Source: Leptospirales bacterium (lineage in GTDB: Bacteria; Spirochaetota; Leptospiria; Turneriellales; JAOUFE01). Taken from it: DNA of 64,000 bases. Shown piece by piece: positions 30,656 through 57,577 of this stretch. The stretch is taken from positions 64,001-128,000 of the forward strand of contig JBEQLE010000001.1 in NCBI GenBank assembly GCA_040326155.1. Direction: 5' to 3'. Both the position numbers and the translations under genes were made by a program. The notes under the pieces were generated by a model. That model made no database searches, had not been told where the DNA came from, and was given only the letters and a program-made list of their open reading frames with translations. Each line of letters opens with the position of its first letter. Within the stretch, counting starts at the first letter, position 1.

Positions 30656-30683
30656 TTGACACACTTCATGAGTGTGGTATATT
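30656..30683 (+). promoter_or_regulatory. Promoter of the CIS operon with palindromic operator in the spacer
   Basis: TTGACA-16 nt-TATATT with extended TG; CACAC-TTCATGA-GTGTG imperfect palindrome. Confidence 0.65.
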
Positions 30684-30749
30684 CGTTTTAGAAAATATTT
30701 ACTTATCATATTCTCCCACCTATAAAATTCGCTTTTAAGGAAGGGTTAT

Positions 30750-31781
30750 ATGCCAGAGATTATATTACCGGGAACATATGTTTCCGTTCGCGATGAGGGT
30801 TTGATAAGCGCCGGTGGTGTGATATCAGGGAATATCGGGGTGGTCGGGACAGCTGCTTCAGGTACTGTTAACAAAGTAGAAATACTGGGTTCTCTTACGG
30901 AAGCCGGAGAAGTTTTTGGGGCCAAAAAAAGTGGTCTCAATTTACTTGATACATTAGAATTGATTTATGGAAACGGCGGCCGCACGGTTTATGCGATACG
31001 CGCCAACAGTGATACTCCGGAAGATTACAAGGCGGCACTTGCGCCGCTCGAAAAAGAGATCGTTAACATCGTTCTTTTGGCGGGTCAAGATTCCTCCCAG
31101 GTTGAGATGGTCGCCGCGCTACAGGGGCACATTGCCTCTACTTCACAGATTAAAAGAGAACGCATTGGTTTGATCGGATGCGCTACCGCAGACGATGTCG
31201 AAACTATAGCGGCTCACCCGCTCAACAGTGAACGCGTGATTTTTGCCGGCCCCGGCATCAAGATCGGGGGAGTTGATTATTCCGGCGCATATACGGCGGC
31301 GGCCCTGGCCGGTCTGCTTTCTTCTTTACCCGTACAGGCAAGCCCGACCAACAAAACGTTAAACGTACAAGGACTGACTGAAGAATTTACTTCATCAGAA
31401 TTAGAGAAGCTCGTTATGAGCCGGGTTCTAGCCGTAGAAAAACGTAAGGGCTATCGTGTAGTCAAAGGGATTACCACTGCAACCAATAGCGCATGGCATC
31501 AGATCACAACTCGGCGTATTATCGACTATGCAACTTACGGAGTACGCTCTTGTTGCGACCCTTATATTGGAAAACTGAATAACGACCGCGTGCGTAGCGC
31601 AATGAAAGCGACCATTGATTCCTTCTTAACGGGGATGGCAGCTGACGAAGCTTTAGTCAGCTATGAATTGGAAGTTGGCGCCACCAGAGCGCAGGAAATT
31701 GCCGGTGAGTGTATCGTCACTATGACACTACGTCCGACATTCAGTATTGATTTCATCAAAGTAACCATGTACCTCGGGTGA
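30750..31781 (+). CDS. Contractile tail sheath protein (compact, 343 aa)
   Basis: LPGTYV start, VVGTA, SPTNK, ITTRRIIDY, YIGKLNNDRVR, LRPTFSIDFIKVT sheath C-terminal motifs. Confidence 0.9.
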   Translation: MPEIILPGTYVSVRDEGLISAGGVISGNIGVVGTAASGTVNKVEILGSLTEAGEVFGAKKSGLNLLDTLELIYGNGGRTVYAIRANSDTPEDYKAALAPLEKEIVNIVLLAGQDSSQVEMVAALQGHIASTSQIKRERIGLIGCATADDVETIAAHPLNSERVIFAGPGIKIGGVDYSGAYTAAALAGLLSSLPVQASPTNKTLNVQGLTEEFTSSELEKLVMSRVLAVEKRKGYRVVKGITTATNSAWHQITTRRIIDYATYGVRSCCDPYIGKLNNDRVRSAMKATIDSFLTGMAADEALVSYELEVGATRAQEIAGECIVTMTLRPTFSIDFIKVTMYLG

Positions 31782-31805
31782 TGGAAAAGGGATAAGGAGT
31801 AACAT

Positions 31806-32315
31806 ATGCCAAACAATAATGTTTTTCGAGGGTCGGACGCAACACTTGTGCTGGCCGTGGATGACAGCGCAACGGTAGAGGGAGGCCTTGCCGATGGCTT
31901 AATAAGCGAATATGATTTTTCCAATATCGTCGGGCGCTTGCAAGATGTAAGAGTGAAAGTACTCAATGAGGTGCGTCCTTACCATGAGATTGGAAAAAGA
32001 TACCCGACTGAATTGAGACCGGGTAATATTGACGTTACGGGTTCGGCTCGCCGCGCTCATATTAACGGAGCGATGTTAAAACTGCTTTTAGGGGATGGCG
32101 CAAAAAGTCCTCCTCCGGGGGGAGTGATGGCACAACCGGCTTTCAGTATGGTTTTAAATTTACAAAACCCCGCGTTACCGGACAACACCAGTAAACTGGT
32201 CCTTTTTGGAGTGAAGTTTGAAAGTTGGAACTTTGAACTACCAGAAGATGATTTTGTAATGGAGTCGGTTACGTTTCGGGCTATTCGTATTGCAGGTGAA
32301 GAAGCCAGCGCATGA
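31806..32315 (+). CDS. Tail tube protein
   Basis: 169 aa after the sheath; VGRLQDV...HEIG...GNIDVTGS, MESVTFRA beta pattern. Confidence 0.75.
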   Translation: MPNNNVFRGSDATLVLAVDDSATVEGGLADGLISEYDFSNIVGRLQDVRVKVLNEVRPYHEIGKRYPTELRPGNIDVTGSARRAHINGAMLKLLLGDGAKSPPPGGVMAQPAFSMVLNLQNPALPDNTSKLVLFGVKFESWNFELPEDDFVMESVTFRAIRIAGEEASA

Positions 32316-32686
32316 GTCAGGTCGATTTAAAATTAACTCCGGAGGAGATGTTGGCCGGATCACAATTTAACTATGATCTGACAATTCCTGAGGAGATTTT
32401 AAAACCGGCAATGAATTCTGAATCGTCTGCTGACATTTCATCGGGCAAAGACAGTAAATTGCACAATACGGTTACGATTGTTCCGCTATCGATTTCCCGA
32501 TTTCAGTTGATTATGAAGGCGGCAAAAAATGACCCGGCAATGATACCTTTATTAATGATTAAAGAATCATTGCGTGAACCATCTCTGAGTCTCAAACAAA
32601 TAGAACAATTGCATATGGGGCTGGTTCGCTTTTTAATACAAAATATTCGTGAAATCAGCGGTTTGTTAGAAAAAAAAAATATATAA
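32312..32686 (+). CDS. Tail assembly chaperone (G/E-like short form)
   Basis: Position after the tube gene; ends in GAA AAA AAA AAT ATA TAA slippery run. Confidence 0.7.
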   Translation: MSQVDLKLTPEEMLAGSQFNYDLTIPEEILKPAMNSESSADISSGKDSKLHNTVTIVPLSISRFQLIMKAAKNDPAMIPLLMIKESLREPSLSLKQIEQLHMGLVRFLIQNIREISGLLEKKNI

Positions 32687-32832
32687 CAGAACTAGACCGC
32701 TCGTTCCTTGCGCAATCTTCGTATCGGTTAGCCAAAGAGTTTGGCTGGACCCCCTCTCAGGTAAGGAAAATGACTTTTTTACAGGTTAAATTATTCTTGC
32801 AGATGTTGGATAAAGACAAAGGAGTGGAGTAA
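32677..32832 (+). CDS. -1-frame extension of the tail chaperone (GT/E'-like)
   Basis: Open -1 frame KYITELDRSFLAQSSYRLAKEFGWTPSQVRKMTFLQVKLFLQMLDKDKGVE; no start codon ahead of the FGWTP motif; stop abuts next ATG. Confidence 0.7.
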   Translation, partial: KYITELDRSFLAQSSYRLAKEFGWTPSQVRKMTFLQVKLFLQMLDKDKGVE

Positions 32833-32833
32833 C

Positions 32834-34018
32834 ATGACTTCTTACGGTAAAACTCTTTTCCTCGAATTTACCAGATTACAACGCGAGTTAGAAATCCAAA
32901 GTGAAGCACCCGAATTTCTAAATATTGGTAGGGAATTTCTTGACCCTTTTCATGACCTGTCCAACACCGAAACTGTTGTGCGAGAGGCGATTGATCTTTC
33001 ACATTTTTTAACCTCCGGTTTTTTTCCTCATTCATCCGCTGATTTTCCTTTTATCGATACAGACCTCCGGCATCCTGATGATTTTCACGAAGATTTTGAA
33101 TATTCGGAAAATTTACCACACCAAGAATCAGAAGCGCAAAAAGGATATGATACAAACCAAACTCTTAATGAGCAAAACACCAAACAATCGCCTTCACCCG
33201 AACAAAATTCAAAAAAGCCGAATACGGAACAAAAAACTGAAAGCGAAATAAATTTTTTATCAAATCAAAACCCCGATAGGGAAACCATCGAACCAAATCG
33301 GGAACCGCAAACTTCCCAAGAGCCGAATGAGCAAAACACCAAACAACGGTCTTCACAAGATACAGCTTCAAGCGAGCGCACTTCACCGACAAAATCTACG
33401 CAGGTCTATCGATCAAAAAAAACGGCCACAGGAACATTACAAAATGGAAATGTCGATTCGTTGCGACAGCTCGGTATTGAAATTTCTCAAGATGTCCGCA
33501 ATGATATAAAAGGAATACAACCAATTAATGACAGTGGAAATTTTACTAACCAAATCCAGATTTTGGAAAATCAAAATGCCTCCGCTGAAAGATCACCATC
33601 CGGAAATAACGTCGGGGAAACGTTGGGCCAACACTCTCAACAACCAACGTCTCAGGAAAGTTCTCCGCTAAGCAATTATATATCAGAGAAAAACGATTTT
33701 CCTGCGCCGCTGGGTTCTTTGCGGGAATTGGCAAAGAATATATCAGAAGGAGCTATCGTTTCTTCCGATGGAATTCTTTTTGCACAAGAAGAACTCACCA
33801 AGCCAAAACCGGAGACAAGTCAAAACGAAAACGAACACTCTATCTCCGGGACCGGGCAAGTTTCTACGGGAACACCGGAGCAGTTAAAGCATTTCGATTT
33901 GGAAAACAGCCGAGAATTTGACGTTAAGGATGGCCAGGGAATCGACAAGGAAGAGATGCTCGATTTAATTAAAAACGAGTTAGAATTACAATATTTGAGG
34001 TTATACGGCGAGGATTGA
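32834..34018 (+). CDS. Largely disordered Q/N/S/E-rich CIS protein at the tape-measure position
   Basis: Low complexity, internal 21-bp repeat (33167-87 / 33326-46), short helical termini. Confidence 0.6.
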   Translation: MTSYGKTLFLEFTRLQRELEIQSEAPEFLNIGREFLDPFHDLSNTETVVREAIDLSHFLTSGFFPHSSADFPFIDTDLRHPDDFHEDFEYSENLPHQESEAQKGYDTNQTLNEQNTKQSPSPEQNSKKPNTEQKTESEINFLSNQNPDRETIEPNREPQTSQEPNEQNTKQRSSQDTASSERTSPTKSTQVYRSKKTATGTLQNGNVDSLRQLGIEISQDVRNDIKGIQPINDSGNFTNQIQILENQNASAERSPSGNNVGETLGQHSQQPTSQESSPLSNYISEKNDFPAPLGSLRELAKNISEGAIVSSDGILFAQEELTKPKPETSQNENEHSISGTGQVSTGTPEQLKHFDLENSREFDVKDGQGIDKEEMLDLIKNELELQYLRLYGED

Positions 34019-34058: not shown

Positions 34059-34811
34059 ATGGCTATAGAGTTGGCAGAAATTGAGTTAAAGCGGGTTCAC
34101 CGAATCGTAACGCAAGAACCCACTGCCTTTGTGCGCCATGCCATTCCGGGCATGGATGGCGACATGGTCCAGAACCTGGGGCGCGGAAGCGTTCGCCTTT
34201 TAATCGAAGGGATTTTTTATGGGCCGGAAGCTGCCAACGATCTGGAAAAACTACGCGGCCTTTATCGCAAAGCGCAACCCGTTGAGTTTCTAGCTGAGAT
34301 CACAGGGCAATCCTATTTTGGCGAGGTCACACTGGAGGATTACCGGGTTTGGCAGTTGGCTTCGGAGCCCGACCAGTACAGTTACACTCTTACGATTGCC
34401 GAATACTTAAAACCGCCCGAACCGGAGACGGTCGAAGTTCCCGTAGCAACCGAAGTCGAAAGTCAAATCAAAGATCTGGCGTCGAAGGCGATGGATCTGG
34501 TGAGTTTACCGAAATTGGAAAACCCTTTGCCCGCCCTGGAAAAAGCGTTGGCCGATATACAAAAAGGGATCGAACTACTTGCGCTTTCTCCGAACTCGAT
34601 TATCGAAAGCCTGCGTCCTGTTTTTGGTTTGGTCGAACCCAAAGCTGTCGAGATGAGCGCAGTTGATGAGGCTGGGAATCCGGTTCCCGACATGCCTTTA
34701 TATTTTATCGACGAGGCAGGCGAAAAACACAAAGCGCAACTCGAAAACGGCAAGCTTGAAATGAAAGAGCTACCTCCGGGAAGTTATCGCGTCGTGGTGG
34801 GTAAGGAATAA
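34059..34811 (+). CDS. Tube-initiator-like protein (DNA_circ_N-like) with C-terminal beta-sandwich
   Basis: HAIPGMDGDMVQNLGR...YSYTLTIAEY; C-terminal VDEAGNPV...LPPGSYRV. Confidence 0.6.
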   Translation: MAIELAEIELKRVHRIVTQEPTAFVRHAIPGMDGDMVQNLGRGSVRLLIEGIFYGPEAANDLEKLRGLYRKAQPVEFLAEITGQSYFGEVTLEDYRVWQLASEPDQYSYTLTIAEYLKPPEPETVEVPVATEVESQIKDLASKAMDLVSLPKLENPLPALEKALADIQKGIELLALSPNSIIESLRPVFGLVEPKAVEMSAVDEAGNPVPDMPLYFIDEAGEKHKAQLENGKLEMKELPPGSYRVVVGKE

Positions 34812-34813: not shown

Positions 34814-35503
34814 ATGGCTGTCGCACAAAATTTCGCGGTCATGGATATGATTGTTCCCGGCGGTGTATATAAAACCTTTCACGAATTCACCGCTTATGCA
34901 GATTTTACCAACTGGGTTGCCGAAGCAGATAAACAAAATATTTCTGAAGGCTACCCCTACGGTAAAATTGACGATCCGGATAAGCCGCACAATCTGTATG
35001 TTTACTCCAAGAACTTTGCCGGCACAATTAGTGTTGGTTCAACTTTTACGGTAAAGCAGGTTGTCTATCACGCCAAAGCCGCTTTAAAGCGCGGCACAAC
35101 TCTCCATGGCCCCTACCAGTGTATTTTGGTAGAGTTTGATTACGGCGGCGCCAAAACCCAGGGCTATATCTGGCCGGTCTACAACGGTTGGGTAGCCGAA
35201 ATTGTCCCGGAAGGTTTATCTTTAATTATCGAAGAGGGGCAACTTGCAAATTTCCAGGCTATTTTTAAACAAAATTCCGACGGTAGCTATTCGCTCATAG
35301 ACTTTGCGTTTTTCATAGAGATTGAAGACGACACTTTAGAAATCCATGTGATCGACCCCGGCGGAACACCGCTTTCATCGGCCACCATGATCTTAACCGG
35401 AGTCGACATTGCGCTTGAAAAAACGATTACAATTACGGATGGAACCGGTACACAAAGCGGATTAACACCGGGGACGTATCTGATTAAGAAGGGGGGTGTG
35501 TAA
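34814..35503 (+). CDS. Hypothetical CIS accessory protein with C-terminal carboxypeptidase-regulatory-like beta-sandwich
   Basis: VIDPGGTPLSSA...GLTPGTYLI. Confidence 0.55.
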   Translation: MAVAQNFAVMDMIVPGGVYKTFHEFTAYADFTNWVAEADKQNISEGYPYGKIDDPDKPHNLYVYSKNFAGTISVGSTFTVKQVVYHAKAALKRGTTLHGPYQCILVEFDYGGAKTQGYIWPVYNGWVAEIVPEGLSLIIEEGQLANFQAIFKQNSDGSYSLIDFAFFIEIEDDTLEIHVIDPGGTPLSSATMILTGVDIALEKTITITDGTGTQSGLTPGTYLIKKGGV

Positions 35504-35506: not shown

Positions 35507-38500
35507 ATGATTCCCATACTTGAACAAATTCCCGACCCCGAAGAGGTACAGTTTCAGCTTTCGGAGATGGCGCGTACGGTCGATGAGATTGTCGCCCGGG
35601 CGGAAGAAATTGCCTCGGGTGATTTTTCTTTACTTTTTGAAGGGGCGTCTTCTTTGCCTTTTCCGAAACCGGAAAATTTGACTGGGCCGATGCTCGAAAG
35701 TCTGAATGCCATAGTAAAAAATATTCCCGATAAAAAGACTCTGCTGGTGGAGCAATATAAATACCGGGAACAAATTCGTTCGCAAGTAGAAACATTACTC
35801 GCTTTTGACCCTGCCGAGGCCCAGAGTTTATTTGAGTTGATTACCCCAAAGTTTGCTTCGCTTGACAAGTGGATTGAAAAAGCTGATTTTTTTAAAAGTT
35901 CGTATGACCCGAATGGATCGCCCGATTTTTTGAAAAACCATATCCGAAATCTTCATGTAATTTCGTCGGACTCCGGTTTGCATAATAAGTTTAAGGCGGC
36001 CAATGCCATAGCCCCTGATCTTATGGCGAATGTTCGGGAACCAGTCTCTTTTTTACGACGCTCTGTCTGGTTCGACCCGTTGCGACTGTCTCTGGAAACA
36101 ATGCGTGACGCTGATTTTAACGACGCGGCTCTTTTGCCCAGCCACCGGCAGAAACTGGAGCAGATAAAAACCCTTCTTTCGGAAACCGCTCTCGGCCTGG
36201 AAACTCGCTTTAATGAAATAAAAAGCGCGGTGTCCGCACTACCCGCTTTGAATGAACTCGAAGCGTTGGACGATGCAACTCCCGAAAACGATCTCGATTC
36301 TTTTCTTGAAGTCCTTCCCGAACTGCATGAACTACGCGACGGTCTATTTTGTTTGTGCCTTGGCGCAAATTTAAAAAGCGCCCCTGTAAATTTCTATTTA
36401 TTATATGAAAACTTTATTTTCAAAAACCAGGAGCTCCCAAAGGAGATATCAAGGGCCGGTACGGAAACCCTCAAGTTTTTAAAAAAGGTCCCGATCGCGA
36501 AGTCGGCTGCGCTCGCAGATTCGGCCATTTCTACCTGGAAAGAAGCAGCTGCGATATTGACCGACGAAACAAACGATCTTAAAAAAGATATTCTCGGGGC
36601 AACTACACAACTTACGTCACTGGCTTCCGAGTTTTCTTTGTCTGAGATCGGCTCTGCAATGGACGAAGCCGTTAAAGCATTGCGCCAGTCCGTCTCAGAA
36701 ATTGAACCGCGAGTAGACGAGGTTGCGAAGCAAATCGAAAACATGATCGAAGAGATATCGCCTGAAATTTCGGCGCTGGATCTTTCGAATATACAGTCGT
36801 TAATTCGTGAACTGCTGGAAACTTGCGAGGGCATATTTTCCGACCCGGAACTTGGAAAGGTGATCGACGTTGCCGGTGAGGCCAATAAACAAGTAGAAAA
36901 GGTTTTGAACCAGGTTCCGCTTGCCGCCCTTTTTGAACAACTCCATACGGCGCTCGACGATGTTGGAAAAAAACTCAACGGGGTCGATACGAAATCGCTA
37001 AGCGCTTCGGTCCGATTGCTGGTCGATGTGGCGCTTACAAGTATACACTCGGTCGACCTTCCCAAGCAACTTGGCAAAGTGATCAAAGAACAGTTCTCGG
37101 CGATCTTTATGGAAGCCGCCAAAGCTCTGTACCCCTTTCGTGAAATGTACAAACTGATTTCCGATACCGTGGACAATTGCGGGCCGGAGCGTTTACTCGA
37201 AGGCGACCTTCTTTCCTCATTTCAGAGTCTACAAAAAATTATCGAAAGTATTGATCCGCAAAATGCATTGGCGCCTTTAAAGAAGGTTCAAGTCAAGTTA
37301 AACAAAGAGCTGGAGCTTTTGGACCCCGCAAAACTTCTCGTTAACATTAAAGAACAGTTGAGTAAAATCACAACCCGACTTTCGGAACTTTCACCGGATC
37401 TGATCTCGGAAGAGCTGCAAAAGATCACCTTCGGAGATTCTTTAGAAGATGAACCCAACGTAATTTTTTCAGAACGCGTCGGTTCATTTGATGATTTAAT
37501 TGCGACACTCGAGAGCGCCCTCGCCGGATTTCCCGAAGAGTCTTTGTTTGATGATGCGATTTCGAATCTCGAAAATATACCCGAAACTTTAGAAGATCTT
37601 AAAAACAGGATGCTCAATTTTCTTTCGGGTGAGCAGGTAACCACCTCCGATTTTAAATTTTTAAAAGATCAAGCGTTAGAGCTCGGGGCCGCAACGATTA
37701 CTCCTGAGATCTCTTTTTGCAACGAGACAACCGCTCTTTTAAATGAATGTGATCTCCCGGCGGCGAGCGCGGCGCTCGGCGATCTATTGGCCGAGATATT
37801 AACAAAAATTGAATCGGCTACATTGCCAGCGCTTGACACCGGAGAAGTCGACACGTCCGGGGCTGCAGAGCTTGCCGCCCTCGGCCAGGATGTCGCGGCG
37901 ATTGACCCGACGCAAATATTTCAAAAAGCAAACGCAGCTTCCATCGATAATCCGGAATGGGAACAACGCCGAAAAAGATATAAACAAAGGTATGATACCT
38001 GTGTTAAAATATGGGAGGCGACGCGCGCAAAAATCGCAAATTTATCGACCGATACTCTCGGTGGTTCTCTTGATAATCTTACCGGGCAAATGCAAATGCT
38101 GTGGCCGCCATTTTCCTCCAAAGAAAATGTAGCGTATAAGGCTTACTTAAAATCTACGCGGGAAATTTGCAAAACTTTTCAACACACGCATCAGGAATTA
38201 CAAAGCTATCTTTTCGGGTTAAAAGAGTTTCGCCGTTTGAGCCAAGACGCGCTAACTTTGTATAACCCGACCGAGTTTGACTTTACTCAAGAGGCCGAAG
38301 CCTGGAACGCACTTTTAGAGCAGGTTCAATCTAACGTAAACAGTAAAGAGGTCGAAAAACGGATTCTCAATTTACGAAAAGAGATCGATAAAGAGATACT
38401 GAAAATCTATCCAGCCGAGAAACTCGAAAATCTCGACACAATCTTTGATTTGAAAATCAACAACCCTCTTCAAAAGTCCGACCCCCAGGCGAGTCTCATT

Positions 38501-38686
38501 AAACCGCTTTTGCCTCTTTATGAAAAGTTATGCCAGGCTAAAGAAAAAATAAATATCGACGTCATGCTAAAACCAACCATGGACAAACTCGCTTTGATGG
38601 AATCAGACATTCAGTCGGGGATTAAACGAACGTTGGAACTTGTGTTAAAAATTCCGCAGGTCGAAAAAGAAGGGGATGTTGCATGA
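35507..38686 (+). CDS. Long all-helical repeat protein, candidate tape measure
   Basis: 1059 aa with amphipathic repeats punctuated by DP/SP..L...L; lies before the hub gene. Confidence 0.55.
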   Translation: MIPILEQIPDPEEVQFQLSEMARTVDEIVARAEEIASGDFSLLFEGASSLPFPKPENLTGPMLESLNAIVKNIPDKKTLLVEQYKYREQIRSQVETLLAFDPAEAQSLFELITPKFASLDKWIEKADFFKSSYDPNGSPDFLKNHIRNLHVISSDSGLHNKFKAANAIAPDLMANVREPVSFLRRSVWFDPLRLSLETMRDADFNDAALLPSHRQKLEQIKTLLSETALGLETRFNEIKSAVSALPALNELEALDDATPENDLDSFLEVLPELHELRDGLFCLCLGANLKSAPVNFYLLYENFIFKNQELPKEISRAGTETLKFLKKVPIAKSAALADSAISTWKEAAAILTDETNDLKKDILGATTQLTSLASEFSLSEIGSAMDEAVKALRQSVSEIEPRVDEVAKQIENMIEEISPEISALDLSNIQSLIRELLETCEGIFSDPELGKVIDVAGEANKQVEKVLNQVPLAALFEQLHTALDDVGKKLNGVDTKSLSASVRLLVDVALTSIHSVDLPKQLGKVIKEQFSAIFMEAAKALYPFREMYKLISDTVDNCGPERLLEGDLLSSFQSLQKIIESIDPQNALAPLKKVQVKLNKELELLDPAKLLVNIKEQLSKITTRLSELSPDLISEELQKITFGDSLEDEPNVIFSERVGSFDDLIATLESALAGFPEESLFDDAISNLENIPETLEDLKNRMLNFLSGEQVTTSDFKFLKDQALELGAATITPEISFCNETTALLNECDLPAASAALGDLLAEILTKIESATLPALDTGEVDTSGAAELAALGQDVAAIDPTQIFQKANAASIDNPEWEQRRKRYKQRYDTCVKIWEATRAKIANLSTDTLGGSLDNLTGQMQMLWPPFSSKENVAYKAYLKSTREICKTFQHTHQELQSYLFGLKEFRRLSQDALTLYNPTEFDFTQEAEAWNALLEQVQSNVNSKEVEKRILNLRKEIDKEILKIYPAEKLENLDTIFDLKINNPLQKSDPQASLIKPLLPLYEKLCQAKEKINIDVMLKPTMDKLALMESDIQSGIKRTLELVLKIPQVEKEGDVA

Positions 38687-43934: not shown

Positions 43935-43966
43935 AAGAGTAATTGAAAGGAACAAGGAGCAAACAA

Positions 43967-50000: not shown

Positions 50001-50674
50001 CATTCCTTCATAACTTGTTTCCAAAACTGACAAAGAATACAGATCCTTGGCTGCGTATTGATAAAGAGAAAGCCCACCCTGTTGCCGTTTTTTTTGTATA
50101 CAAAGATGCCCCTGGCACGCTCTATTGTAATTTAGATTCATCTTTAATGGAAGAAGTAAGTATTGAATCTATAAAATTTTACACTCACGAAATGGTTGTT
50201 AATAATGCAGTAACAAACACAAATTTAGTCGAAGTATGTACGAGCGAAGTCGAAGTGTACAAAATTACAAAAAAAAGCATAATTTCTGGAATTGAAAACT
50301 CTGTCAGTGTCTCTACTTATAAATGTAAAATAGACGACTCTCATCAAGCAAACTTGAACAGAATCTTGGGAAATGACGATCAGTTTGAAGAGGTATTTGC
50401 TTCCATAAAATTCTGTGGTAAAGAGAGCTCTATATTTAAAGATATATATTGCTTTAATACACCATGGAATTTTCTAATATTAAGGAGAAAACCTTTTGGT
50501 TATTTAGATTATGATATTGATGTTCAAAAGATTATGGACATTGAAGCCTATAAAGTAAGCGGAGAGTCGAAAGGTAAAGATGCTTATATACTTATTCCAT
50601 ATGTAGACCCACACTTTCTTCCCAACTATGAGTTGCGGCAAGAACTTTATCCTCAAAAATACTCTGAAGAGTGA
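47033..50674 (+). CDS. Large calcineurin-like metallophosphoesterase, candidate CIS cargo/effector
   Basis: SDIH, SGDVID, TGNHD, LSHF, TGHSH motifs in order; AT-richer than the structural genes. Confidence 0.75.
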   Translation: MIDKGLLKEGKVFIVLGKDGLFNNPEYTTYYNFNWRVHKTGQPLFESGFYEESEQPVPLPPYTMPEHRIGDLEPNDVIILDQVLFHAEKTNRQNVADTAHQCLLVTVKQAKNNQLIGKQGFIWSVYNGKHYITPCIGSVSSQGGKPDLKITSGPGNITSVKKNVNESIPESKTPNFDEGYVIDLIWSDGKPGSIQGLILYPALLTPEILTPKSESLSFVLLTLGGSTQPTSKQIKDQLKISYGLYFKEPALILSGLQEVDINVDEIANTQALISTNDFKGVIDSRVDYKSKTQEDNCYRVTIQKSVFQNGDPSKPLFKKNKLKQKNSNDEAINTTLKKYKTDKIPGSGKHCFQFEEDDINFTKSDLTRPIRSHHPVFILGKKERHKTNGYNFAQMSDIHISSREHTLRKSQAKVIEGVSDDISCPVGSMVNIASKNMKSFLDISGCSDETDIILISGDVIDHIPNARVDSSETVSEIWENLKLEDSPSLGDWSPDDNYQLFWDHIAFYSFIVYFYERFKKPSYYVTGNHDVYGAPYGITPVLFSEGNLDSNKKENHPLLNEGIPADHNLTFYEAQLIFGDTSKSVYENSSGITLKYLDWIHSCYTPFKDYLIEWDKQNIIALGWGDKEDLMLDSQGWMGHLPRSEDPFTEIQFNLLKEINNNSNNTKKHILLSHFTFISYHEMIPDHHLDGGGVLKSEYQMPNQYQINLNKDYNWYDMGTFEEERLASYKYAKERLHVIVTGHSHRRAAYTFGDINIDGTKIETRMHPLSESKYFDLDDVTKTSRTPVVVVSDSTGPLPRLNRDGEFFGWGSDQAAGLLLHFLDNDKLKVDTLKVGPKPRFCVTLDYQTALREASIEKYHDMFNSSIYEDEHNAFTKIIPGQFFVKEIDLQTPFPNNSILFLNQVGMKGIPQTNLGTFIQSDSNTVAAKTKKIVDIFNSIVSDDTRFQAVMNSFVSNDSLTEAGSDYLAGLNLAIQNAQNSDQVSSLRKSFLHNLFPKLTKNTDPWLRIDKEKAHPVAVFFVYKDAPGTLYCNLDSSLMEEVSIESIKFYTHEMVVNNAVTNTNLVEVCTSEVEVYKITKKSIISGIENSVSVSTYKCKIDDSHQANLNRILGNDDQFEEVFASIKFCGKESSIFKDIYCFNTPWNFLILRRKPFGYLDYDIDVQKIMDIEAYKVSGESKGKDAYILIPYVDPHFLPNYELRQELYPQKYSEE

Positions 50675-50878
50675 CCCACAAGGGGATAATCGATATTATT
50701 GAATCTATTGAGAACTTGTTGTAAACCTACTTAGCTCAGATTGATCCGGGAGGATACTTGACCTTAGCAAAAAATATGGAAGCTCTATGCGAGCAAAGCG
50801 TATAACTCGTCAAGAACCGCTTGTTTTTCTTCAACTATTCCTCCCTGTACATTAACTCGAGAATAAAACACCCACTAA

Positions 50879-50950
50879 TTATCCCCAAAATTATATAAAA
50901 ATACTTTACGCTTCCCAGAAACACTATACATATGGATATATATAAAGAGC
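50879..50950 (+). promoter_or_regulatory. Promoter-like block upstream of fibre 2, duplicated upstream of fibre 3
   Basis: Aligns with 55192-55261, including an identical 25-mer CACTATACATATGGATATATATAAA. Confidence 0.6.
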
Positions 50951-51069
50951 GTTAAAGCTACGACATTTGATTTCCCGCCTGCCGACATAGAACGTAGTTA
51001 GGAAATCCCTATCTATTTTTTCCTTATCTTGCGTAGTCAGTGCCGTGCAAATGACAAAAGAGGGAACAA

Positions 51070-54033
51070 ATGGCATTAATCGATAAACAGAAAAATCCTG
51101 GCGACATGATCAAGTCGCAAGACTGGAACGACACCGTAGATGAAATCAACCGACTTGATAAAGATAAGGTAAATAAAACGGGCGATCTGATTACGGGGGG
51201 TCTATCGGTAGGCGGTAAACTCACCGTGAAAGATCAATTTCAAATCGGCGATGCGAGTCACATAAAATCATTCACTCAAAAGGGCGCAGGCGAATTACAA
51301 ATAGGGCTGGGTAAATTTCGCATCGGTACGATGATACAGATCGAAGCGAGAATCGCCGGAGCCAATGCCGAGACAGCTGGGCTCTACCATATCGTCTGCG
51401 ACTGGAATGAACGGCCTTCGATTTTATACCAGAGCGTTGGTGACAAAATGGAGCGATTAGCGTTCTTTGGCTACCGCCAGAATGAAGAAACCCTGGACGC
51501 TTCGAGTCTGGCCATACCCAGCGGCGCTGTTTACCTCTGGGCAAGATGGCTACCTGACGACGCCAAACCCGTCGATCAAAATAACACGTTGTATTTAAAA
51601 GCCGCCTCTGTTACCGAATTTGACGAGCTTGATATTGGCGTTTGGGAGACGGCAGTGAAATATCCGGTGGGGAAAGTTTTGACTGTCGATTCGCGAAGCG
51701 GAAATGTGGGGATTGGGACAGATGCTCCGGTCACGAAGCTACATGTAACCGGTGCCACTACGCTTGAGTACCTTAGAGTATTACCATCTTCGACAAGTGA
51801 AGGCGGAGAAGTACAACTCTTGGGTGCCGGTACGAATCCACCTTGGCACCTCGACGTATATGACAACCGATTTCGAATTCACAGTGGAGGTGAGAAACTC
51901 AATATTCTTTCGAATGGAAATGTCGGGATAGGGACGAGTTCTCCTACAAACAAATTAATGATCACCGGAATTACACCACAGTCAAACGATGGCATCGTCG
52001 TTCAATCAACAGACAATCGCACTATTTCATTATTACCGAGTAGAGGGGCCGGAGGTCACAACCCTTTAGTTTCTGCCGGAGATACATCGATTATATATTC
52101 AGCAGGTGCACCAAATACAGGTGCCTTCGTTATTGGACAATGGAGTTCCACAACGAATGGTTTGAAAATTGCAGCAAATGGGAATGTTGGGATTGGGACT
52201 GGCACACCGAAAAACAAACTTCATCTATGCGGAGTTACCGATGGAGCGATCATCTCGGATCCAAATGATCGTCCAGGTCTTGTAATTACAGGCCAATACC
52301 CTCAAATCGATTTATTCAGTGCAATGAACAATGGAGCTCATGGGCCTACGATTCGTCTGGGTGGGTATAATGACGACAGTAAAACTACGTTTAAACATTG
52401 GGTCATTGGCACGTCAGGGAGAAACTGTAGGCATCTCGATATTGGATTTTCCGCCAATAACGACCCAAATCCACATGCGGGAATTCGCAATTACAATGGC
52501 AGTACGAAAATGACATTTCTGGAAAATGGGAATGTGGGAATTGGGACGCTGGAGCCGGGAGCGAAATTGCAAATCAAGGGGAATCAGATTATTGAACGAG
52601 AAGCTGGTCACTTGCTTTTAGATCGCCAAGCTAGTGAAACGACAGGCGGTAATAAGATATTTCTGGAGTTGCGACAAATGGATGCTAATCCTGCAAAAGT
52701 ACCAGCTATTTTTCCGTCTATTAGGTTTCACCATGCTTACAAGTTTTGGCATAGGCTGGAGGGGCGCCCGGATGGATTACACGTAAAAGATGGTCACGAA
52801 TTAAATGATGTTTATAGACCTTTCCATGCTTCTGAACTGACTATCCATGGAAATAATATACGAACAACTGGCCGAATGCATTTAGACGGACCTGAATTAT
52901 GTTATATTTTAAACAAAAGTGGTGTAATCATCGGTAAAGAGTGGGGTGGAAATGGTAACCTTTCGGTACAAGGTGTTTTTAGTAATTCCGATCGGCGTTT
53001 GAAAAAAAACATTAAAAAAATAAATTCATCATTAGAGAAACTAACGAAATTACAGGGTGTTTCCTATTACTGGAAAAACCCGGAACGTTTGCCCACTCTT
53101 CAAATCGGACTAATTTCTCAGGAAGTTGAAGAATACTTTCCAGAATTGATCAGCCTGGGTAGAGAAGGAGTAAAGTATATAAACTATTCAGGCTTAATCG
53201 CGCCCTTAATTGAGTCTACGAAAGAACAGCAAAAACAAATTGAAACGTTATCGGCACAAAACGAAAACCAGCAAAAAACTATCGACCACTATCACAAATC
53301 ATTAAAAGGCGCAGATTTTGCTGAGTACTTTAAATCGTTAGACGGAAAAAGTATGGCTCCGGGTGTTTCTGTTGTCATGGATAATGGGAAGATCCGCGTA
53401 GCGAAGAAAGGGGAAGTACCATTTGGCGTTACTTCGGAGAATCCACGAATGTTGGGCGGTCTCCATTCTGAGTGGCCTGGCAAAATTTTACAAGATACTT
53501 TCGGCAACGACATCCTCGAAGAATACAAAGAAGAGATCATGGCGCAAAAAACCGAAAAGGTAAAACGCCAACGCCAAAAAGTAAAAACTAAAACCATCGA
53601 AAAAGATGTGATTGAAACGGTCGAGAAAACCGTCAAAGGCAAGAAGGTCATGGTTGAGGTGACCAAAAAAGAGACGCGCGAGATTGACGAACCACAGTTC
53701 AAAGAAGTTGAAATCTACGACGAAAAAACCAAAGAGGTCATTCGCACTGAGCAGGTTCCGGTTATGGAAACCTACGAGGTCGAGGAACTTGTCTACAATG
53801 AAAACGGTGAGTCGGTCATGGTCGGCACAGGTAAATTTGAGAAGAAGACACGTCCGAAACTGAACCCCAAATATGATCCAAAGCGTGAGTATGTTCCGCG
53901 TGATCAACGTCCTGAGTGGAATGTTGTTGGGCTGGTTGGGCAGATTCCGCTTCGTAAGGGGCAGCCGACTGCGCCGGGCTGGGTGAAGATGAAGGATCTT
54001 GATGAGGATGTTGAGTTGTGGTTGGTGAAGTGA
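51070..54033 (+). CDS. Tail fibre 2: same N- and C-terminal frame as fibre 1, different central modules
   Basis: Homologous first ~220 aa and last ~240 aa; four GNVGIGT boundaries; SDRRLKK (S74) and GADFAEYF (G2). Confidence 0.85.
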   Translation: MALIDKQKNPGDMIKSQDWNDTVDEINRLDKDKVNKTGDLITGGLSVGGKLTVKDQFQIGDASHIKSFTQKGAGELQIGLGKFRIGTMIQIEARIAGANAETAGLYHIVCDWNERPSILYQSVGDKMERLAFFGYRQNEETLDASSLAIPSGAVYLWARWLPDDAKPVDQNNTLYLKAASVTEFDELDIGVWETAVKYPVGKVLTVDSRSGNVGIGTDAPVTKLHVTGATTLEYLRVLPSSTSEGGEVQLLGAGTNPPWHLDVYDNRFRIHSGGEKLNILSNGNVGIGTSSPTNKLMITGITPQSNDGIVVQSTDNRTISLLPSRGAGGHNPLVSAGDTSIIYSAGAPNTGAFVIGQWSSTTNGLKIAANGNVGIGTGTPKNKLHLCGVTDGAIISDPNDRPGLVITGQYPQIDLFSAMNNGAHGPTIRLGGYNDDSKTTFKHWVIGTSGRNCRHLDIGFSANNDPNPHAGIRNYNGSTKMTFLENGNVGIGTLEPGAKLQIKGNQIIEREAGHLLLDRQASETTGGNKIFLELRQMDANPAKVPAIFPSIRFHHAYKFWHRLEGRPDGLHVKDGHELNDVYRPFHASELTIHGNNIRTTGRMHLDGPELCYILNKSGVIIGKEWGGNGNLSVQGVFSNSDRRLKKNIKKINSSLEKLTKLQGVSYYWKNPERLPTLQIGLISQEVEEYFPELISLGREGVKYINYSGLIAPLIESTKEQQKQIETLSAQNENQQKTIDHYHKSLKGADFAEYFKSLDGKSMAPGVSVVMDNGKIRVAKKGEVPFGVTSENPRMLGGLHSEWPGKILQDTFGNDILEEYKEEIMAQKTEKVKRQRQKVKTKTIEKDVIETVEKTVKGKKVMVEVTKKETREIDEPQFKEVEIYDEKTKEVIRTEQVPVMETYEVEELVYNENGESVMVGTGKFEKKTRPKLNPKYDPKREYVPRDQRPEWNVVGLVGQIPLRKGQPTAPGWVKMKDLDEDVELWLVK

Positions 54034-54074: not shown

Positions 54075-54614
54075 TTAAACAAGAGAACCATATATCGGTG
54101 TTACATCAATAGCATTTAACATAAGTTCAAGCATTTGAGAATTTAAATGTCGATATGTAAAATAATATCGCAGATTTTTTTCAAATTTATTAAATTTGCC
54201 CCAATCAACTCCAACAATTGGACTGTTCGTATCATAGGACATTGTAATCATTAAGCTGATAGCAAAGTTTTCATTAACCCATTTAATTTGAGGATATTTG
54301 ATTAAAGTGTCTTTATCGATATCCTTTATTAATTGAATCGGCTTTCTTCTCGATACCCAATATGCTGTATAAGCGGCAACTTTTTTTGGATTTGCTCTTT
54401 CAATGCCGTGAAAATCTTTTAGTCGAGTAATATCAGAAAAGTAATCTAATAAAATTTCATCTATTAAATATTCATTAACTACTGCAAAATTATCAATATT
54501 TGCAGATTTAATGTAATGCCTTGCTTTTCCATAAATAAAAAGAAATCTATTTTTCAGGCATTCTTCGCCAAAGTCTTTTATTAGATTCTCATAAGAACGA
54601 TCACTGTTTTCCAT
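54075..54614 (-). CDS. Hypothetical protein, possibly degenerate Fic/Doc-like fold
   Basis: KVAAYTAYWVSRRKPIQ...NENFA; very AT-rich. Confidence 0.6.
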   Translation of the reverse strand: MENSDRSYENLIKDFGEECLKNRFLFIYGKARHYIKSANIDNFAVVNEYLIDEILLDYFSDITRLKDFHGIERANPKKVAAYTAYWVSRRKPIQLIKDIDKDTLIKYPQIKWVNENFAISLMITMSYDTNSPIVGVDWGKFNKFEKNLRYYFTYRHLNSQMLELMLNAIDVTPIYGSLV

Positions 54615-54807: not shown

Positions 54808-55191
54808 GTTTTACCCCCGCAAAAAGAATAAGTAATCTTAAAATAAATTACCATTTAATAAGCCATTATTTTTATGTAGTGTGCAGATAGTCAACAAAAA
54901 AATGGTTTATAGTATCGTTTCTGGCCAAAATGAACTTTATGAATATTTTTAAATCCAGAGTCGACATGATGCGATATGACCAATTCCGGGCACATAGTCT
55001 TTACATTGGTAGCGGCGTCATTTAGCCCCAAATAAATACGTTATCCAAAACAGACTGAAAAGATTTGGTATGAAATGCTCCATTACTAGCGCAAAAACCA
55101 TCGCAAAACTTCGAACCATTTCTTATAAAACAAATGGGATTACACATGGGACGTTGAGTAACCATCAAATTTTACCCGCAACAACCAATAT

Positions 55192-55261
55192 TTATCCCCT
55201 AAATTATATAAAATACTTTACACTTGTTAAAAGCACTATACATATGGATATATATAAAAGC
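55192..55261 (+). promoter_or_regulatory. Duplicate promoter-like block upstream of fibre 3
   Basis: Aligns with 50879-50950. Confidence 0.6.
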
Positions 55262-55379
55262 ATCCAAGCCTGCGCTATTTAACCTAATCCGTTACCGGTA
55301 TTCGCTCCGGTTGGGGAATTTCCTACCTGTTTTTTGCCGACCCCGGCAGGCCCGGATAAAACGATAACCGAGGGAACAA

Positions 55380-56135
55380 ATGGCATTAATCGATAAACAG
55401 AAAAATCCTGGCGATATGATCAAGTCGCAAGACTGGAACGACACCGTAGATGAAATCAACCGGCTCGACAACGATAAGGTGAATAAAGCGGGCGATCTGA
55501 TTACGGGGGGTCTATCGGTAGGCGGTAAACTCACCGTGAAAGATCAATTTCAAATCGGCGACGCGAGTCATATAAAAGCGTTCAGCGAAACAGGCGCAGG
55601 CGAATTAAAAATCGGGCTGGGTAAATTTCGCATCGGTACGATGATACAGATCGAAGCGCGGATCGCCGGAGCCAATGCCGAGACAGCGGGTCTCTACCAC
55701 ATCGTCTGCGACTGGAACGAGCGGCCTTCGATTTTATACCAGAGCGTCGGTGACAAAATGGGGAGATTAGCGTTCTTTGGCTACCGCCAAAATGAAGAGA
55801 CCCTGGACGCTTCGAATCTGGCGATACCCAGCGGCGCCGTCTACCTCTGGGCAAGATGGCTACCCGACGAGACCAAACCTGTCGATCAAAGTAACACGTT
55901 GTATTTGAAGGCCGCCTCCGTTACCGAGTTTGATGAGCTCGATACCGGCGTCTGGGAAACCGCTTTGAAGTATCCTGTAGGGAAAGTTTTGACTATCGAT
56001 TCGCGAAGCGGGAATGTCGGGATTGGGACGGATGCTCCGGGGGTAAAAGTGTACAAAGATGTAAAATTACCCATCTACACCCACCAACAAAAACAAATCA
56101 CCCTACTCCCGTTCTATCCACACGATTACTGGTAA
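55380..56135 (+). pseudogene. Truncated tail fibre 3 (N-terminal anchor only)
   Basis: Collinear with fibre 2 to 56040 (GNVGIGTDAP), then 31 unrelated codons and a stop; no S74/G2. Confidence 0.8.
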
Positions 56136-56137
56136 GA

Positions 56138-56689
56138 TCACGTAATCCCCGAAACCATTCCCCCCGGGCTGCCCACGAAAGGCGCATGAGCGCCCGGCAC
56201 CGGCGTTGTTGGCTTTTGCAATTTTACCCAGTCAATGACACAACCCGCAAGTTGCAGCATCGATTCCTCTCTGTCATTGGTATCATTATCCAGGTCAATT
56301 GCTATTGAGAGGTTGAGGTTTGTGATTGTGGGTGAATAGGCCATCGGCATGGGAGAAGTCGCAAAACCTACATCGGTGATGTTGTACATGGCCGCACTTA
56401 GTCCTGTGACCAACTCGCCTATCATGTGATCCATCGCCTCTTTCCGAATTTCGGCTTTTGATGCGGTTAAACTCATCGCCAGGTTTTGAATTTTTCCTTT
56501 GGCGGTGGTTATTGTGTCTGGGGTGCCTGCCGGATTTAACGCGACCCAGCTAAAACTTACCTCCGCATTATCAGCGATATATTTAGCAATAGCCTCGCCC
56601 AGTTTTGACAGCGCACCCTCTGGAGCAACCCCATCAGTCGCCGCCAGAAGCGCTTTTTGTAAACCCTCAGCACTTAAAGCCATAACCAC
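56138..56689 (-). CDS. Hypothetical protein with internally duplicated helix-strand unit
   Basis: LSKLGEAIAKYI and MLQLAGCVIDWV repeats, Gly/Pro-rich end. Confidence 0.65.
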   Translation of the reverse strand: MVMALSAEGLQKALLAATDGVAPEGALSKLGEAIAKYIADNAEVSFSWVALNPAGTPDTITTAKGKIQNLAMSLTASKAEIRKEAMDHMIGELVTGLSAAMYNITDVGFATSPMPMAYSPTITNLNLSIAIDLDNDTNDREESMLQLAGCVIDWVKLQKPTTPVPGAHAPFVGSPGGMVSGIT

Positions 56690-56874
56690 TTCCTTAGATT
56701 TTTCATAGACATGTTACACCGTATTGTTATAAAGACAATCATAACGTTTAAGAAACAATAGAATGTACAAAACATTGTTTTGTAAAGGAAAAAATAAAGC
56801 ATAAAGGCGCGAAAGAGATTCGCTGCTGATTATATTAATTATTTATAAAATTTAAATGTAGGTAGGTAAGAACA

Positions 56875-57069
56875 ATGAAAAAACAATTAGAACAAAGACT
56901 GGAAACACTCAAAAGTGAATTTTCTGACGGCCAAAAACAACTAATGGAACTTCAAAATCAGGAGACATCACTAAAAGAAACTCTACTACGAATTAGCGGC
57001 GCCATACAAGTTCTTGAAGAAGAGATAAATGGACCTGAACCGGCCTCGACGAATTTAAATGATAAATAA
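56875..57069 (+). CDS. Small coiled-coil protein
   Basis: MKKQLEQRLETLK...LLRISGAIQVLEE; RBS-like AGGT upstream. Confidence 0.75.
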   Translation: MKKQLEQRLETLKSEFSDGQKQLMELQNQETSLKETLLRISGAIQVLEEEINGPEPASTNLNDK

Positions 57070-57577
57070 ACTCATTCAATCCATCATTCTTCTGCTGGAG
57101 CAAAACTTGAGCGCGATTTTGGACACTCCGGTAGATCAAACAAATCCATCACTCACGGTTTTACCGGGCAAGTTTTCTTTTGTTCCCGGGGCCAATCAAG
57201 ATCGTCTGCAAGCACGCGCTCAGCAATTAGCGTCCGAGCGAGATTTCAACCAGGAATTTTTTGTAAAAATTCTGGCTCCGGACGTAGCGAAAAGTGAAGA
57301 AATAGCCGCGCTTGCCATTAACATTATTATCACAGAAAAAGAGTTCCTGCTTGGGCAGGTAAACCGCGAAAACAAAGCAACATACCAAACCGGTAAGTAC
57401 GTATCAGAAATCGATATAACCGAATTTCAGTTTCTCGAAGGCGCACTAGATAACTCCGGTGCCGTAATTAATTTCGTCATGAAATTTCAAGCCGGCGGAC
57501 GTTTAACTCTAGCCAAAGAAGCCGGACCGGCTGAAGTTATTGAAAAAGTAGTTCTAAATGAGCCTAACGTACAATAA
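57059..57577 (+). CDS. Hypothetical protein, candidate tail terminator/cap
   Basis: N-terminal amphipathic helix then beta/alpha pattern reminiscent of gpU/Pvc16-type folds; overlaps upstream gene. Confidence 0.45.
   Translation: MINKLIQSIILLLEQNLSAILDTPVDQTNPSLTVLPGKFSFVPGANQDRLQARAQQLASERDFNQEFFVKILAPDVAKSEEIAALAINIIITEKEFLLGQVNRENKATYQTGKYVSEIDITEFQFLEGALDNSGAVINFVMKFQAGGRLTLAKEAGPAEVIEKVVLNEPNVQ

Follow-up and report, generated by a model that had tools for sequence, protein, structure and literature searches.

A head-less contractile-tail gene cluster in a Leptospirales genome and its relatives across phyla

What kind of machine is encoded by a set of contractile-tail genes that has no phage head genes beside it? 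We addressed this question for a gene cluster in a Leptospirales bacterium (GenBank assembly GCA_040326155.1). The window, as we call the whole stretch of DNA analysed, comprises 64,000 nt of contig JBEQLE010000001.1 (positions 64,001-128,000 of the forward strand), and the cluster spans window positions 30750-57577. It carries the gene set of a contractile tail in the order of its relatives, its core genes are intact, head genes are absent and the head-less layout recurs throughout its family. From the genes alone, the locus probably (at about 0.7) encodes a complete capsid-less contractile phage-tail-like particle that would work in the manner of an R-type tailocin or extracellular contractile injection system (eCIS) and would represent a cross-phylum lineage for which we found no description.

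An intact tail module without head genes and its relatives

Profile searches with Pfam, PHROGs, NCBIfam and PADLOC over the open reading frames (ORFs) of the window reveal a complete contractile tail module, with the tube and the tape measure placed by position and composition only. The first-pass annotation, made from the sequence itself, had named a sheath, tube, chaperone, hub, spike, gp25, J, wedge and fibres, and Pfam and PHROGs matches together with gene position bear out this set. The gene order is that of gp39-gp49 in the annotation of phage Mu. Sixteen plus-strand ORFs lie within 30750-54033 with stops and starts that overlap or nearly abut (e.g. 32312/32315 and 38683/38686), and the core ORFs are all intact, translationally coupled and free of internal stops. 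The single co-oriented operon proposed earlier therefore holds as far as 54033; past this point two minus-strand ORFs (54075-54614 and 56138-56689) and a truncated fibre copy break the arrangement. The GC content is 44-47% in the cluster core and 37-41%, which is host-like, in the part encoding fibres and enzyme (genome 39.6%). For the promoter claimed for the cluster there is a strong sigma-70-like candidate at 30656-30683, a consensus match and no proof of function, in a region with 11 promoter-like sites against 6.9 +/- 2.9 in shuffles. The features are as follows, with matches given as E-values.

29936-30220, plus strand: 94-aa ORF with three hydrophobic segments, upstream of the promoter; holin-like in topology only
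30656-30683, plus strand: candidate sigma-70-like promoter, TTGACA-16-(TG)TATATT, 11 of 12 consensus matches with an extended -10 TG
30750-31781, plus strand: tail sheath, minimal 343-aa form (PF04984 3.6e-12, PF17482 3.3e-15, phrog_279 2e-44)
31806-32315, plus strand: putative tail tube, 169 aa, from its size and position after the sheath (Phage_tube_2 5.6e-4, under the Pfam cut-off)
32312-32831, plus strand: tail assembly chaperone, by position and slippery site; 124-aa ORF ending at 32686, with a -1 frameshift extension
32834-34018, plus strand: 394-aa acidic, low-complexity protein rich in S, E, Q, N and P, at the tape-measure position (by composition)
34059-34811, plus strand: DNA_circ_N protein with a Mu gp43-like N-terminal domain, hub-proximal (PF07157 3.5e-5; phrog_184)
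34814-35503, plus strand: 229-aa protein specific to this genome, with no family in the Pfam, PHROGs, NCBIfam and PADLOC searches
35507-38686, plus strand: 1059-aa protein, acidic and rich in helix, the likelier candidate for the tape measure (composition; weak phrog_1204 match)
38683-39639, plus strand: baseplate hub of the gp27 / Mu gp44 / Afp8-N type, 318 aa (position; weak profile matches in the PDB)
39641-40411, plus strand: central spike, 256 aa, with the P2 gpV / VgrG oligonucleotide/oligosaccharide-binding fold and beta-helix (PF04717, Phage_base_V, 1.2e-8)
40430-40852, plus strand: gp25/W sheath initiator (PF10934 3.2e-9, PF04965 1.8e-7, phrog_975 3.7e-23)
40854-42020, plus strand: Baseplate J, gp6-like wedge (Baseplate_J 1.7e-15, phrog_6 7.7e-46)
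42066-43385, plus strand: second wedge protein, 439 aa, by its position (that of Mu gp48 / P2 gpI / gp7); no family match
43404-43877, plus strand: 157-aa peripheral baseplate or fibre-docking protein (phrog_5417 2.5e-23; predicted fold)
43943-47023, plus strand: tail fibre A, with Peptidase_S74 intramolecular chaperone and Peptidase_G2 domains
47033-50674, plus strand: 1213-aa metallophosphoesterase, candidate payload (protein atlas 0.94 to Metallophos clusters)
51070-54033, plus strand: tail fibre B, a paralogue of A, with Peptidase_S74 and Peptidase_G2
54075-54614, minus strand: 179-aa ORF, no family in the four libraries
55380-56135, plus strand: 251-aa truncated fibre paralogue, its 5' end and the 80 nt upstream duplicated from fibre B
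56138-56689, minus strand: 183-aa ORF, no family in Pfam, PHROGs, NCBIfam or PADLOC
57059-57577, plus strand: probable tail terminator or cap, 172 aa, last conserved gene of the cluster (predicted fold)

Head and packaging genes are missing at every scale covered. Neither the cluster ORFs nor 30 flanking ORFs match a capsid, portal, terminase, integrase, endolysin or AAA+ family, as had been claimed for the first five; a XerC-type recombinase gene (20560-21528) lies outside the cluster in a TopA-XerC-HslVU housekeeping block. Downstream of the window, the remainder of the contig is likewise free of head or packaging families, and the locus contains no replication genes. Matching head genes elsewhere in the genome had been named as evidence that would speak against the first-pass annotation, and searches of the whole assembly (4.26 Mb in 171 contigs, 94.66% complete) for Terminase_6N, Phage_portal, TerL_ATPase, Phage_capsid, Portal_Mu and Mu-like_gpT gave 0 matches, the Portal_Mu blank carrying little weight as its control was also silent. 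The nearest true phage in GenBank, which shares 28% sheath identity and the same phrog_279, served as a positive control and has its head genes beside the sheath, with terminase, portal, scaffold and major head genes at most 6 kb upstream. Characterised R-type tailocins usually have lysis genes of their own (holin, endolysin, spanin) within or next to the cluster. No holin, endolysin or spanin family from Pfam, PHROGs or NCBIfam matches any cluster or flanking ORF. The earlier statement that a holin is missing stands for these family searches and is qualified by the 94-aa ORF upstream, which resembles a holin in topology and has no family in the searches and no homologue in related loci.

The same layout is found in distant hosts. 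Of 7999 proteins scored in a search with the sheath, 1995 reached E<=0.001; the best 120 of these are 62-74% identical to the window sheath in their best local alignments, and many come from Microcystis. A genome scan yielded 18 related loci, 13 of them cyanobacterial, 4 from Bacteroidota and 1 from a gammaproteobacterial metagenome-assembled genome (a short contig), with Microcystis and Nostoc among the hosts; IMG/VR contributed only 4. All 18 genome and 4 IMG/VR loci share the gene order of the window cluster. Identity to the window proteins is 57-74% for the sheath, 66-76% for the tube, 46-55% for the chaperone and 40-49% for the DNA_circ_N protein. For the baseplate proteins it amounts to 26-33% (hub), 35-49% (spike), 41-50% (gp25), 35-54% (J), 29-40% (wedge) and 42-45% (157-aa protein), and for the terminator to 27-32%. 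The cross-phylum conservation of sheath and tube argues for selection on function. Upstream of the sheath in 16 of the 22 loci (93 ORFs; the other six have <2 kb of upstream DNA) there are cellular genes and four fragments of transposases or recombinases; head or packaging families were not matched. Past the terminator, too, the genes of related loci are cellular, with no match to a lysis or ATPase family. Head-less boundaries, with the sheath first and the terminator last, thus recur across phyla in the 16 loci examined. The distinct subtype proposed earlier stands in so far as the sheath lies outside characterised clades; it is no spirochaete speciality, the family being centred on cyanobacteria and Bacteroidota. 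A literature search, covering neither subscription journals nor the dbeCIS tables of PMC6899500, found no tailocin or contractile injection system of this type for Microcystis, other cyanobacteria or spirochaetes. In one Bacteroidales relative, the terminator-like gene is immediately followed, in the same orientation, by a gene with a caspase domain (Peptidase_C14; L027:8925-9734).

Components of the predicted particle

The window sheath has no insertion domain, whereas in the family alignment most relatives carry an insertion of 100-220 aa. Minimal forms of 340-362 aa occur in the window, in 7 of the best 120 matches and in a Bacteroidales locus (L018); longer forms have about 450-490 or 540-590 aa, with the insertion after about residue 92, and reach 645-652 aa in two IMG/VR loci. 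A CheB row for the sheath in NCBIfam lay far under the cut-off and was ignored. The protein assigned as the tube matches nothing in the PDB, either as a single sequence or as a profile, and hhalign comparison of its profile with P2 FII, Mu gp40 and the tube of the genome's own eCIS (contig C48, see below) gives probabilities <1%. The chaperone, 46-55% identical to relatives in 17 loci, contains a slippery A AAA AAA at 32672, from which the -1 frame is open to 32831, three bases before the next ATG. The resulting extension explains the apparent 148-nt gap after the 124-aa ORF.

Two tape-measure candidates had been proposed, and both the 394-aa and the 1059-aa protein keep their position and composition across the family. 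At the position of the former, eight related loci encode a protein of 300-816 aa with like composition and no BLAST similarity. The DNA_circ_N protein, 40-49% identical to relatives in 8 loci, is followed in 8 related loci by a Leu-rich protein or ORF pair (about 1140-1350 aa in six) and in L018 is fused with the large downstream protein. The counterpart of the 1059-aa protein is split into smaller ORFs in L022 and L026; the 1059-aa protein itself is 20-24% identical to counterparts in 5 matching loci, and a protein atlas search with it returned no usable match. On composition, the helical 1059-aa protein is more likely to be the tape measure than the 394-aa protein. The 229-aa protein encoded between DNA_circ_N and the 1059-aa protein has no homologue among the 18 related genome loci (L009-L026).

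Baseplate components are recognised with varying clarity. The hub profile matches an AlgoCIS chain, Pvc8, a phage hub and Mu gp44 in the PDB weakly (E 4e-4 to 0.03). The spike is the sole protein named by the NCBIfam search (TIGR01644 7e-11, under the model cut-off) and matches P2 V by phmmer at 4e-5. Baseplate_J occurs nowhere else in the genome, and the 439-aa wedge follows J in all five related loci that could be extended, at 29-40% identity. The 157-aa protein, 42-45% identical to counterparts in 4 of these 5 loci, had been taken for the collar. Its AlphaFold2 (AF2) model (predicted local distance difference test score, pLDDT, 81.6) resembles a domain of a tail protein of HFTV1 (Foldseek, chain 9h4p_BD, 2.9e-6) and A511 gp105 (probability 0.99), and because of this fold it is assigned, on the model, as a peripheral baseplate or fibre-docking protein and not as a collar. 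Its profile found nothing in the PDB other than a short spurious stretch of Tako8.

The terminator fold belongs instead to the last gene, 57059-57577, which has a homologue at the cluster end in 4 of the 5 extended loci. Its AF2 model is of moderate quality (pLDDT 63.7). VIA-align scores are Z 9.5 for the Pa193 neck, 8.5 for T5 p142, 8.3-8.4 for lambda gpU, 7.5 for the R2 pyocin and diffocin collars and 7.2 for the Mu terminator, with values near 8 only little above background and all Foldseek E-values >0.001. Assignment as the tail terminator is thus likely, not proven.

Fibres A and B each have about 1000 aa. The nucleotides at 55359-55658, spanning the 5' end of the truncated fibre copy, are 93% identical to 51049-51348, and those at 55180-55258 are 88% identical to 50867-50946. 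The fibre 5' end is present in three copies (43946-44245, 51049-51348 and 55359-55658) with 71-93% nucleotide identity, and each copy precedes a different gene (the enzyme and the two minus-strand ORFs), which gives the impression of exchanged cassettes. An invertible switch like the Mu G segment was rejected, as the fibre region contains no inverted repeats.

Between the full-length fibres lies the 1213-aa protein, listed earlier as a structural unknown and identified by its motifs as a metallophosphoesterase. DIH (397-399), GD (457), GNHD (527) and GHSH (742) occur in canonical order and are invariant in an alignment of 15 sequences, and they agree with the pattern DxH, GD, GNH[DE], H, GHxH of calcineurin-like metallophosphoesterases (PF00149); the protein itself falls under the Pfam reporting threshold for this family. 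Homologues number 158 at E<=0.001, and among the best 120 of these (E 1e-74 to 4e-47) most carry PF00149 and some are fused to LysM or M23. A PDB search with the metallophosphoesterase domain as a single sequence gave only chance aminotransferase rows, and PADLOC has no match for the 1213-aa protein or for the 394-aa protein. The enzyme is absent from 40 relative genomes.

Relatives of the enzyme are encoded in 72 metagenome loci, and BLAST flags spike or baseplate neighbours in 10 of the 71 scanned. We surveyed neighbours with Pfam in 13 loci (120 ORFs), a biased sample of which 7 had been flagged by BLAST and 6 picked for long flanks. VgrG lies directly upstream in 6 of the 13, PAAR is found in 4, DUF4123 in 3 and type VI secretion system (T6SS) core genes in 2; a phage-type baseplate is present in 1 (L108, with L042 added by BLAST only). 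At least one spike-, T6SS- or baseplate-type neighbour occurs in 10/13 loci, and a pentapeptide-repeat gene lies directly downstream, also in 10/13. Pentapeptide-repeat proteins are described as T6SS spike accessory proteins in the excerpts of the literature used here. The enzyme thus has relatives in a widespread family, mostly of about 850-1000 aa, whose genes stand directly after VgrG and directly before a pentapeptide-repeat protein (metagenome loci L038-L108). Peptidoglycan-binding or -cleaving genes are frequent nearby, alongside PAAR and DUF4123, and in L041 and L042 a member of the family adjoins PAAR and a baseplate of phage type, the contigs also carrying archaeal-looking genes (TackOD1). 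No paper on a VgrG-linked metallophosphoesterase was found in a literature search whose scope excluded subscription journals and unseen supplements.

In VgrG/PAAR-linked T6SS cargo modules, homologous metallophosphoesterases of 32-40% identity follow VgrG directly (the six loci above). Unlike these modules, the window has its enzyme among phage-type tail genes whose spike is gpV-like and 256 aa long, and contains no VgrG, PAAR, DUF4123 or pentapeptide-repeat partner. Because its relatives adjoin VgrG, PAAR and pentapeptide-repeat genes, the enzyme could be a payload of the particle, a tentative hypothesis to which we give somewhat less than an even chance.

Known contractile systems and competing explanations

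To place the family among known contractile systems, we compared its sheath profile with solved structures and obtained matches to the phage 812 sheath (6.6e-9), R2 pyocin PA0622 (3.5e-7) and All3325, the sheath of a contractile injection system anchored to thylakoids (tCIS; 2.5e-3). In a tree with the sheaths of Mu, P2, the genome's own eCIS and the nearest phage as references, end branches within the family measure 0.14-0.58 substitutions per site while reference branches are saturated at 5.8-10; branching within the family is poorly supported and has no obvious match to host phyla. Searches with phmmer against Mu tail proteins gave no match at E<=1, and among Mu and P2 proteins only the spike matched, to P2 V. 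By these sequence comparisons the sheath falls outside any characterised clade, where a position inside one had been named as evidence against a distinct subtype, and the family stands far from Mu, P2, R2 pyocin and AFP/PVC-type systems.

The likeness to phage Mu is one of order: sheath, tube, chaperone, tape-measure position, DNA_circ_N, hub, spike, gp25-like, J-like, second wedge and fibre follow one another in both. Mu-derived R-type tailocins exist, for example in Pseudomonas syringae. With these and with Mu the cluster also shares a contractile mechanism that has no ATPase. In contrast to this shared order, sequence similarity to Mu is undetectable, with the DNA_circ_N domain alone in common and the tube profile unrelated by hhalign. 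Moreover, the window terminator is at the 3' end, whereas that of Mu is upstream of the sheath; the extra 229-aa gene and the helical gene of roughly 1,100 aa lie between DNA_circ_N and the hub; a low-complexity protein occupies the tape-measure position; and there is no head, transposition or lysis module.

R2 pyocin and diffocin are, like the window cluster as known from its genes, chromosomal head-less contractile tails with fibres, and the resemblance extends to the collar proteins (Z 7.5, terminator model) and to PA0622 (3.5e-7, sheath profile). R-type tailocins differ from it in that its gene order is unlike that of P2-type clusters, no holin, endolysin or spanin cassette was found, its family is distributed over at least four phyla with a near-frozen sheath and tube, and a T6SS-linked enzyme gene stands among its fibres.

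AFP/PVC-type eCIS share with the cluster a head-less contractile locus, a possible payload and a generic sheath, tube, VgrG-like spike, gp25 and J, which do not discriminate because they are common to all contractile systems. In the portions of Chen et al. (2019, PMC6899500) on which we draw, the eCIS core consists of eight subunits, including the Afp15 AAA+ ATPase, the Afp16/Pvc16 cap and the Afp7 LysM protein. Measured against that account, the window cluster is without these 3 of the 8, and it has a single sheath gene and a single tube gene. No Pvc16_N cap, LysM or T6SS family was matched in the cluster, where a DNA_circ_N protein takes the place of LysM, and TssB/TssC, TssE-G-K, TssJLM and ClpV families are missing from the window; a genome-wide TssC search was also blank and, its control being silent, carries little weight. 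The earlier statement that the cluster has no eCIS AAA+ ATPase, TssJLM or ClpV is thus in agreement with the family searches. On its gene families, the cluster belongs to neither the eCIS nor the T6SS.

Several points weigh against reading the locus as a particle of its own kind. The tube at 31806-32315 is assigned from position and size, and the tape measure is ambiguous, with a disordered 394-aa protein in the canonical position and a helical 1059-aa protein after DNA_circ_N. The head searches of the assembly were limited to six Pfam families, one with a silent control, in a 94.66%-complete assembly. Neither the window nor the related loci showed a recognisable lysis cassette, regulator or route of secretion, and because of this we infer the extracellular step only indirectly. 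The metallophosphoesterase may be an unrelated insertion, since it has no homologue in the five extended related clusters and the pentapeptide-repeat partner of 10/13 relatives was not found in the window. Finally, the rearranged 3' end, with its truncated fibre copy and two opposite-strand ORFs, could represent ongoing decay.

Among the alternatives, the one with the largest share of the remaining probability, still improbable, is a cell-associated or cytoplasmic contractile system that acts on cell death or stress, like the thylakoid-anchored tCIS of Anabaena or the cytoplasmic contractile injection system of Streptomyces. The missing lysis cassette, both in the window and beside related clusters, would be expected of such a system, and most family hosts are cyanobacteria, in which non-released systems are documented (the Anabaena tCIS, in the part of PMC8894136 cited here). 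Membrane anchoring finds no counterpart in the cluster proteins: a hydropathy scan detected no membrane-spanning segment and flagged only two hydrophobic windows, both in the spike. The family sheath reaches All3325 only at E 2.5e-3, and long receptor-binding-type fibres with S74 chaperone domains are those of free phage tails and tailocins. Somewhat less probable again is that the locus is the inert remainder of a myovirus prophage with Mu order, which has lost its modules for head, replication and lysis and whose genes are decaying. The Mu gp39-gp49 order, the truncated fibre duplicate and opposite-strand ORFs at the 3' end and the status of the locus as a singleton in its phylum are what a remnant would leave. 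Decay is at odds with intact, translationally coupled core ORFs and a preserved frameshift signal, and a sheath and tube 57-76% identical across phyla likewise speak for a maintained module. The same head-less limits recur across phyla in all 16 loci examined, a pattern that separate deletions would not give.

It is very unlikely that the cluster is the tail half of a split or helper-dependent virus, with heads supplied from elsewhere and joined to tails into infectious or transducing virions. The fragmentation of the assembly (171 contigs, 94.66% complete) and the coverage of six head families leave some room for this arrangement, against which stand the 0 matches for those families and the nature of the other phage-like contig, C48, an eCIS fragment (sheath, tube, AAA ATPase, Pvc16 cap) with no head module. 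Head-tail connector genes are also missing beside the sheath, unlike in Mu and the nearest phage. A divergent membrane-anchored T6SS, suggested by a metallophosphoesterase family encoded mostly beside T6SS spike genes, is the least probable of all and scarcely credible: the cluster contains no TssB/C, TssE-G-K, TssJLM or ClpV family, its sheath is a single phage-type PF04984/PF17482 protein, and the cluster also encodes fibres, a protein resembling a tape measure, a frameshifting chaperone and a terminator.

For the capsid-less particle that we favour, the genes suggest the following course. Transcription would begin from the sigma-70-like site (30656). A baseplate of gp25, J and the 439-aa wedge would be nucleated by hub, spike and DNA_circ_N protein, and to this baseplate the 157-aa protein would dock two full fibres, their S74/G2 chaperone domains being cleaved off. 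Tube and sheath would polymerise on the tape measure, probably the 1059-aa protein, aided by the frameshifting chaperone, and the 172-aa terminator would cap the particle. Release would most likely occur through death or lysis of a producer subpopulation, by a route not encoded in the cluster. Released particles would bind a target cell through their fibres, and the baseplate would trigger sheath contraction, driving tube and spike through the envelope. The 1213-aa metallophosphoesterase may be borne on the spike or baseplate and delivered, and killing may combine puncture and enzyme.

Acquisition by the spirochaete and meaning for the family

FlaA is specific to spirochaete periplasmic flagella, and FlaA (PF04620) matches three loci of this genome and 0/14 controls, which makes the host a spirochaete. 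The 30 flanking ORFs belong to housekeeping or defence. Upstream of the cluster the window encodes FlhA, FlhB, DnaA, AroE/K, IspH, HslUV, XerC, TopA, a sigma factor and TsaD; downstream follows a type I restriction system and, further along the contig, HsdM, Fic, Aat, PstCAB-PhoU and MurE/F. A tRNA scan found none, hence no tRNA-type attachment site, and no integrase marks the site. The sheath was not found in 40 relatives, one of which has weak N-terminal matches to sheath-like ORFs of about 500 aa (one of 802 aa), nor at E<=1e-20 in a sample of 400 other genomes of the phylum. Because of this distribution and a core GC of 44-47% against 39.6% for the genome, the cluster looks horizontally acquired.

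The surroundings of the cluster hold further genes. An XRE-type helix-turn-helix (HTH) gene and a gene for a 152-aa multi-pass membrane protein (28962-29649, minus strand) diverge from it, and between this pair and the promoter lie two ORFs (29936-30535, plus strand), the 94-aa membrane ORF with its three segments and one of 89 aa that is very basic; for these two, searches gave no family and no homologues in related loci. The type I restriction system (window 57877-63999 and beyond) is interrupted by two genes, one for a HigB-like toxin (60889-61191) and an HTH-Peptidase_M78 gene with a match to PADLOC PD-Lambda-2_B (1.6e-48). The restriction genes, followed beyond the window by HsdM and Fic (L113:938-2464), form a small defence islet directly after the tail cluster.

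The genome also contains a second contractile system. Contig C48 (L032:1-4293), 4.3 kb long and cut at both ends, encodes the C-terminal fragment of an AAA+ ATPase, a CarboxypepD_reg protein, a tube, a Pvc16_N cap (3.7e-33; C48:556-1044, the sole match in the genome) and a 495-aa sheath (phrog_23 1.5e-72) that lies far from the window sheath in the sheath tree. By its gene families C48 is a fragment of a canonical AFP/PVC-type eCIS. A related genome (G001) contains two tandem sheath genes of about 505 aa each. The question of an ATPase elsewhere in the genome, raised by the first-pass annotation, thus has a divided answer: the cluster has none, and the AAA fragment on C48 accompanies a separate eCIS. 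The transfer across phyla would accordingly have brought the cluster into a spirochaete already owning a canonical eCIS, and in this genome a phage-type particle is linked with a T6SS-type enzyme.

Contractile injection systems are studied as bacterial weapons, symbiosis determinants and programmable protein-delivery tools. Present catalogues are built on the AFP/PVC core, including the ATPase, or on Pseudomonas-type tailocins, and the family falls outside both definitions. Its sheath can be as small as the minimal 343-aa form seen here, and the functions of the tape measure are divided in an unusual way. It is abundant (62-74% identity among the best 120 of 1995 sheath matches) and its hosts include bloom-forming cyanobacteria of ecological importance, in which genes of this sort have been taken as traces of viral infection (PMC5647855, in the part consulted). 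Whether particles form is directly testable in culturable strains of Microcystis and Nostoc. Beyond the particle itself, it is conceivable, if rather unlikely at present, that the family constitutes a third major lineage of bacterial contractile injection particles, apart from AFP/PVC-type eCIS and P2- or Mu-derived tailocins and characterised by having no ATPase or lysis cassette, a near-frozen sheath and tube, movement between phyla and the pick-up of T6SS-type spike cargo. If this were true, a weapon or cell-death device of Microcystis and Nostoc would have gone unrecognised.

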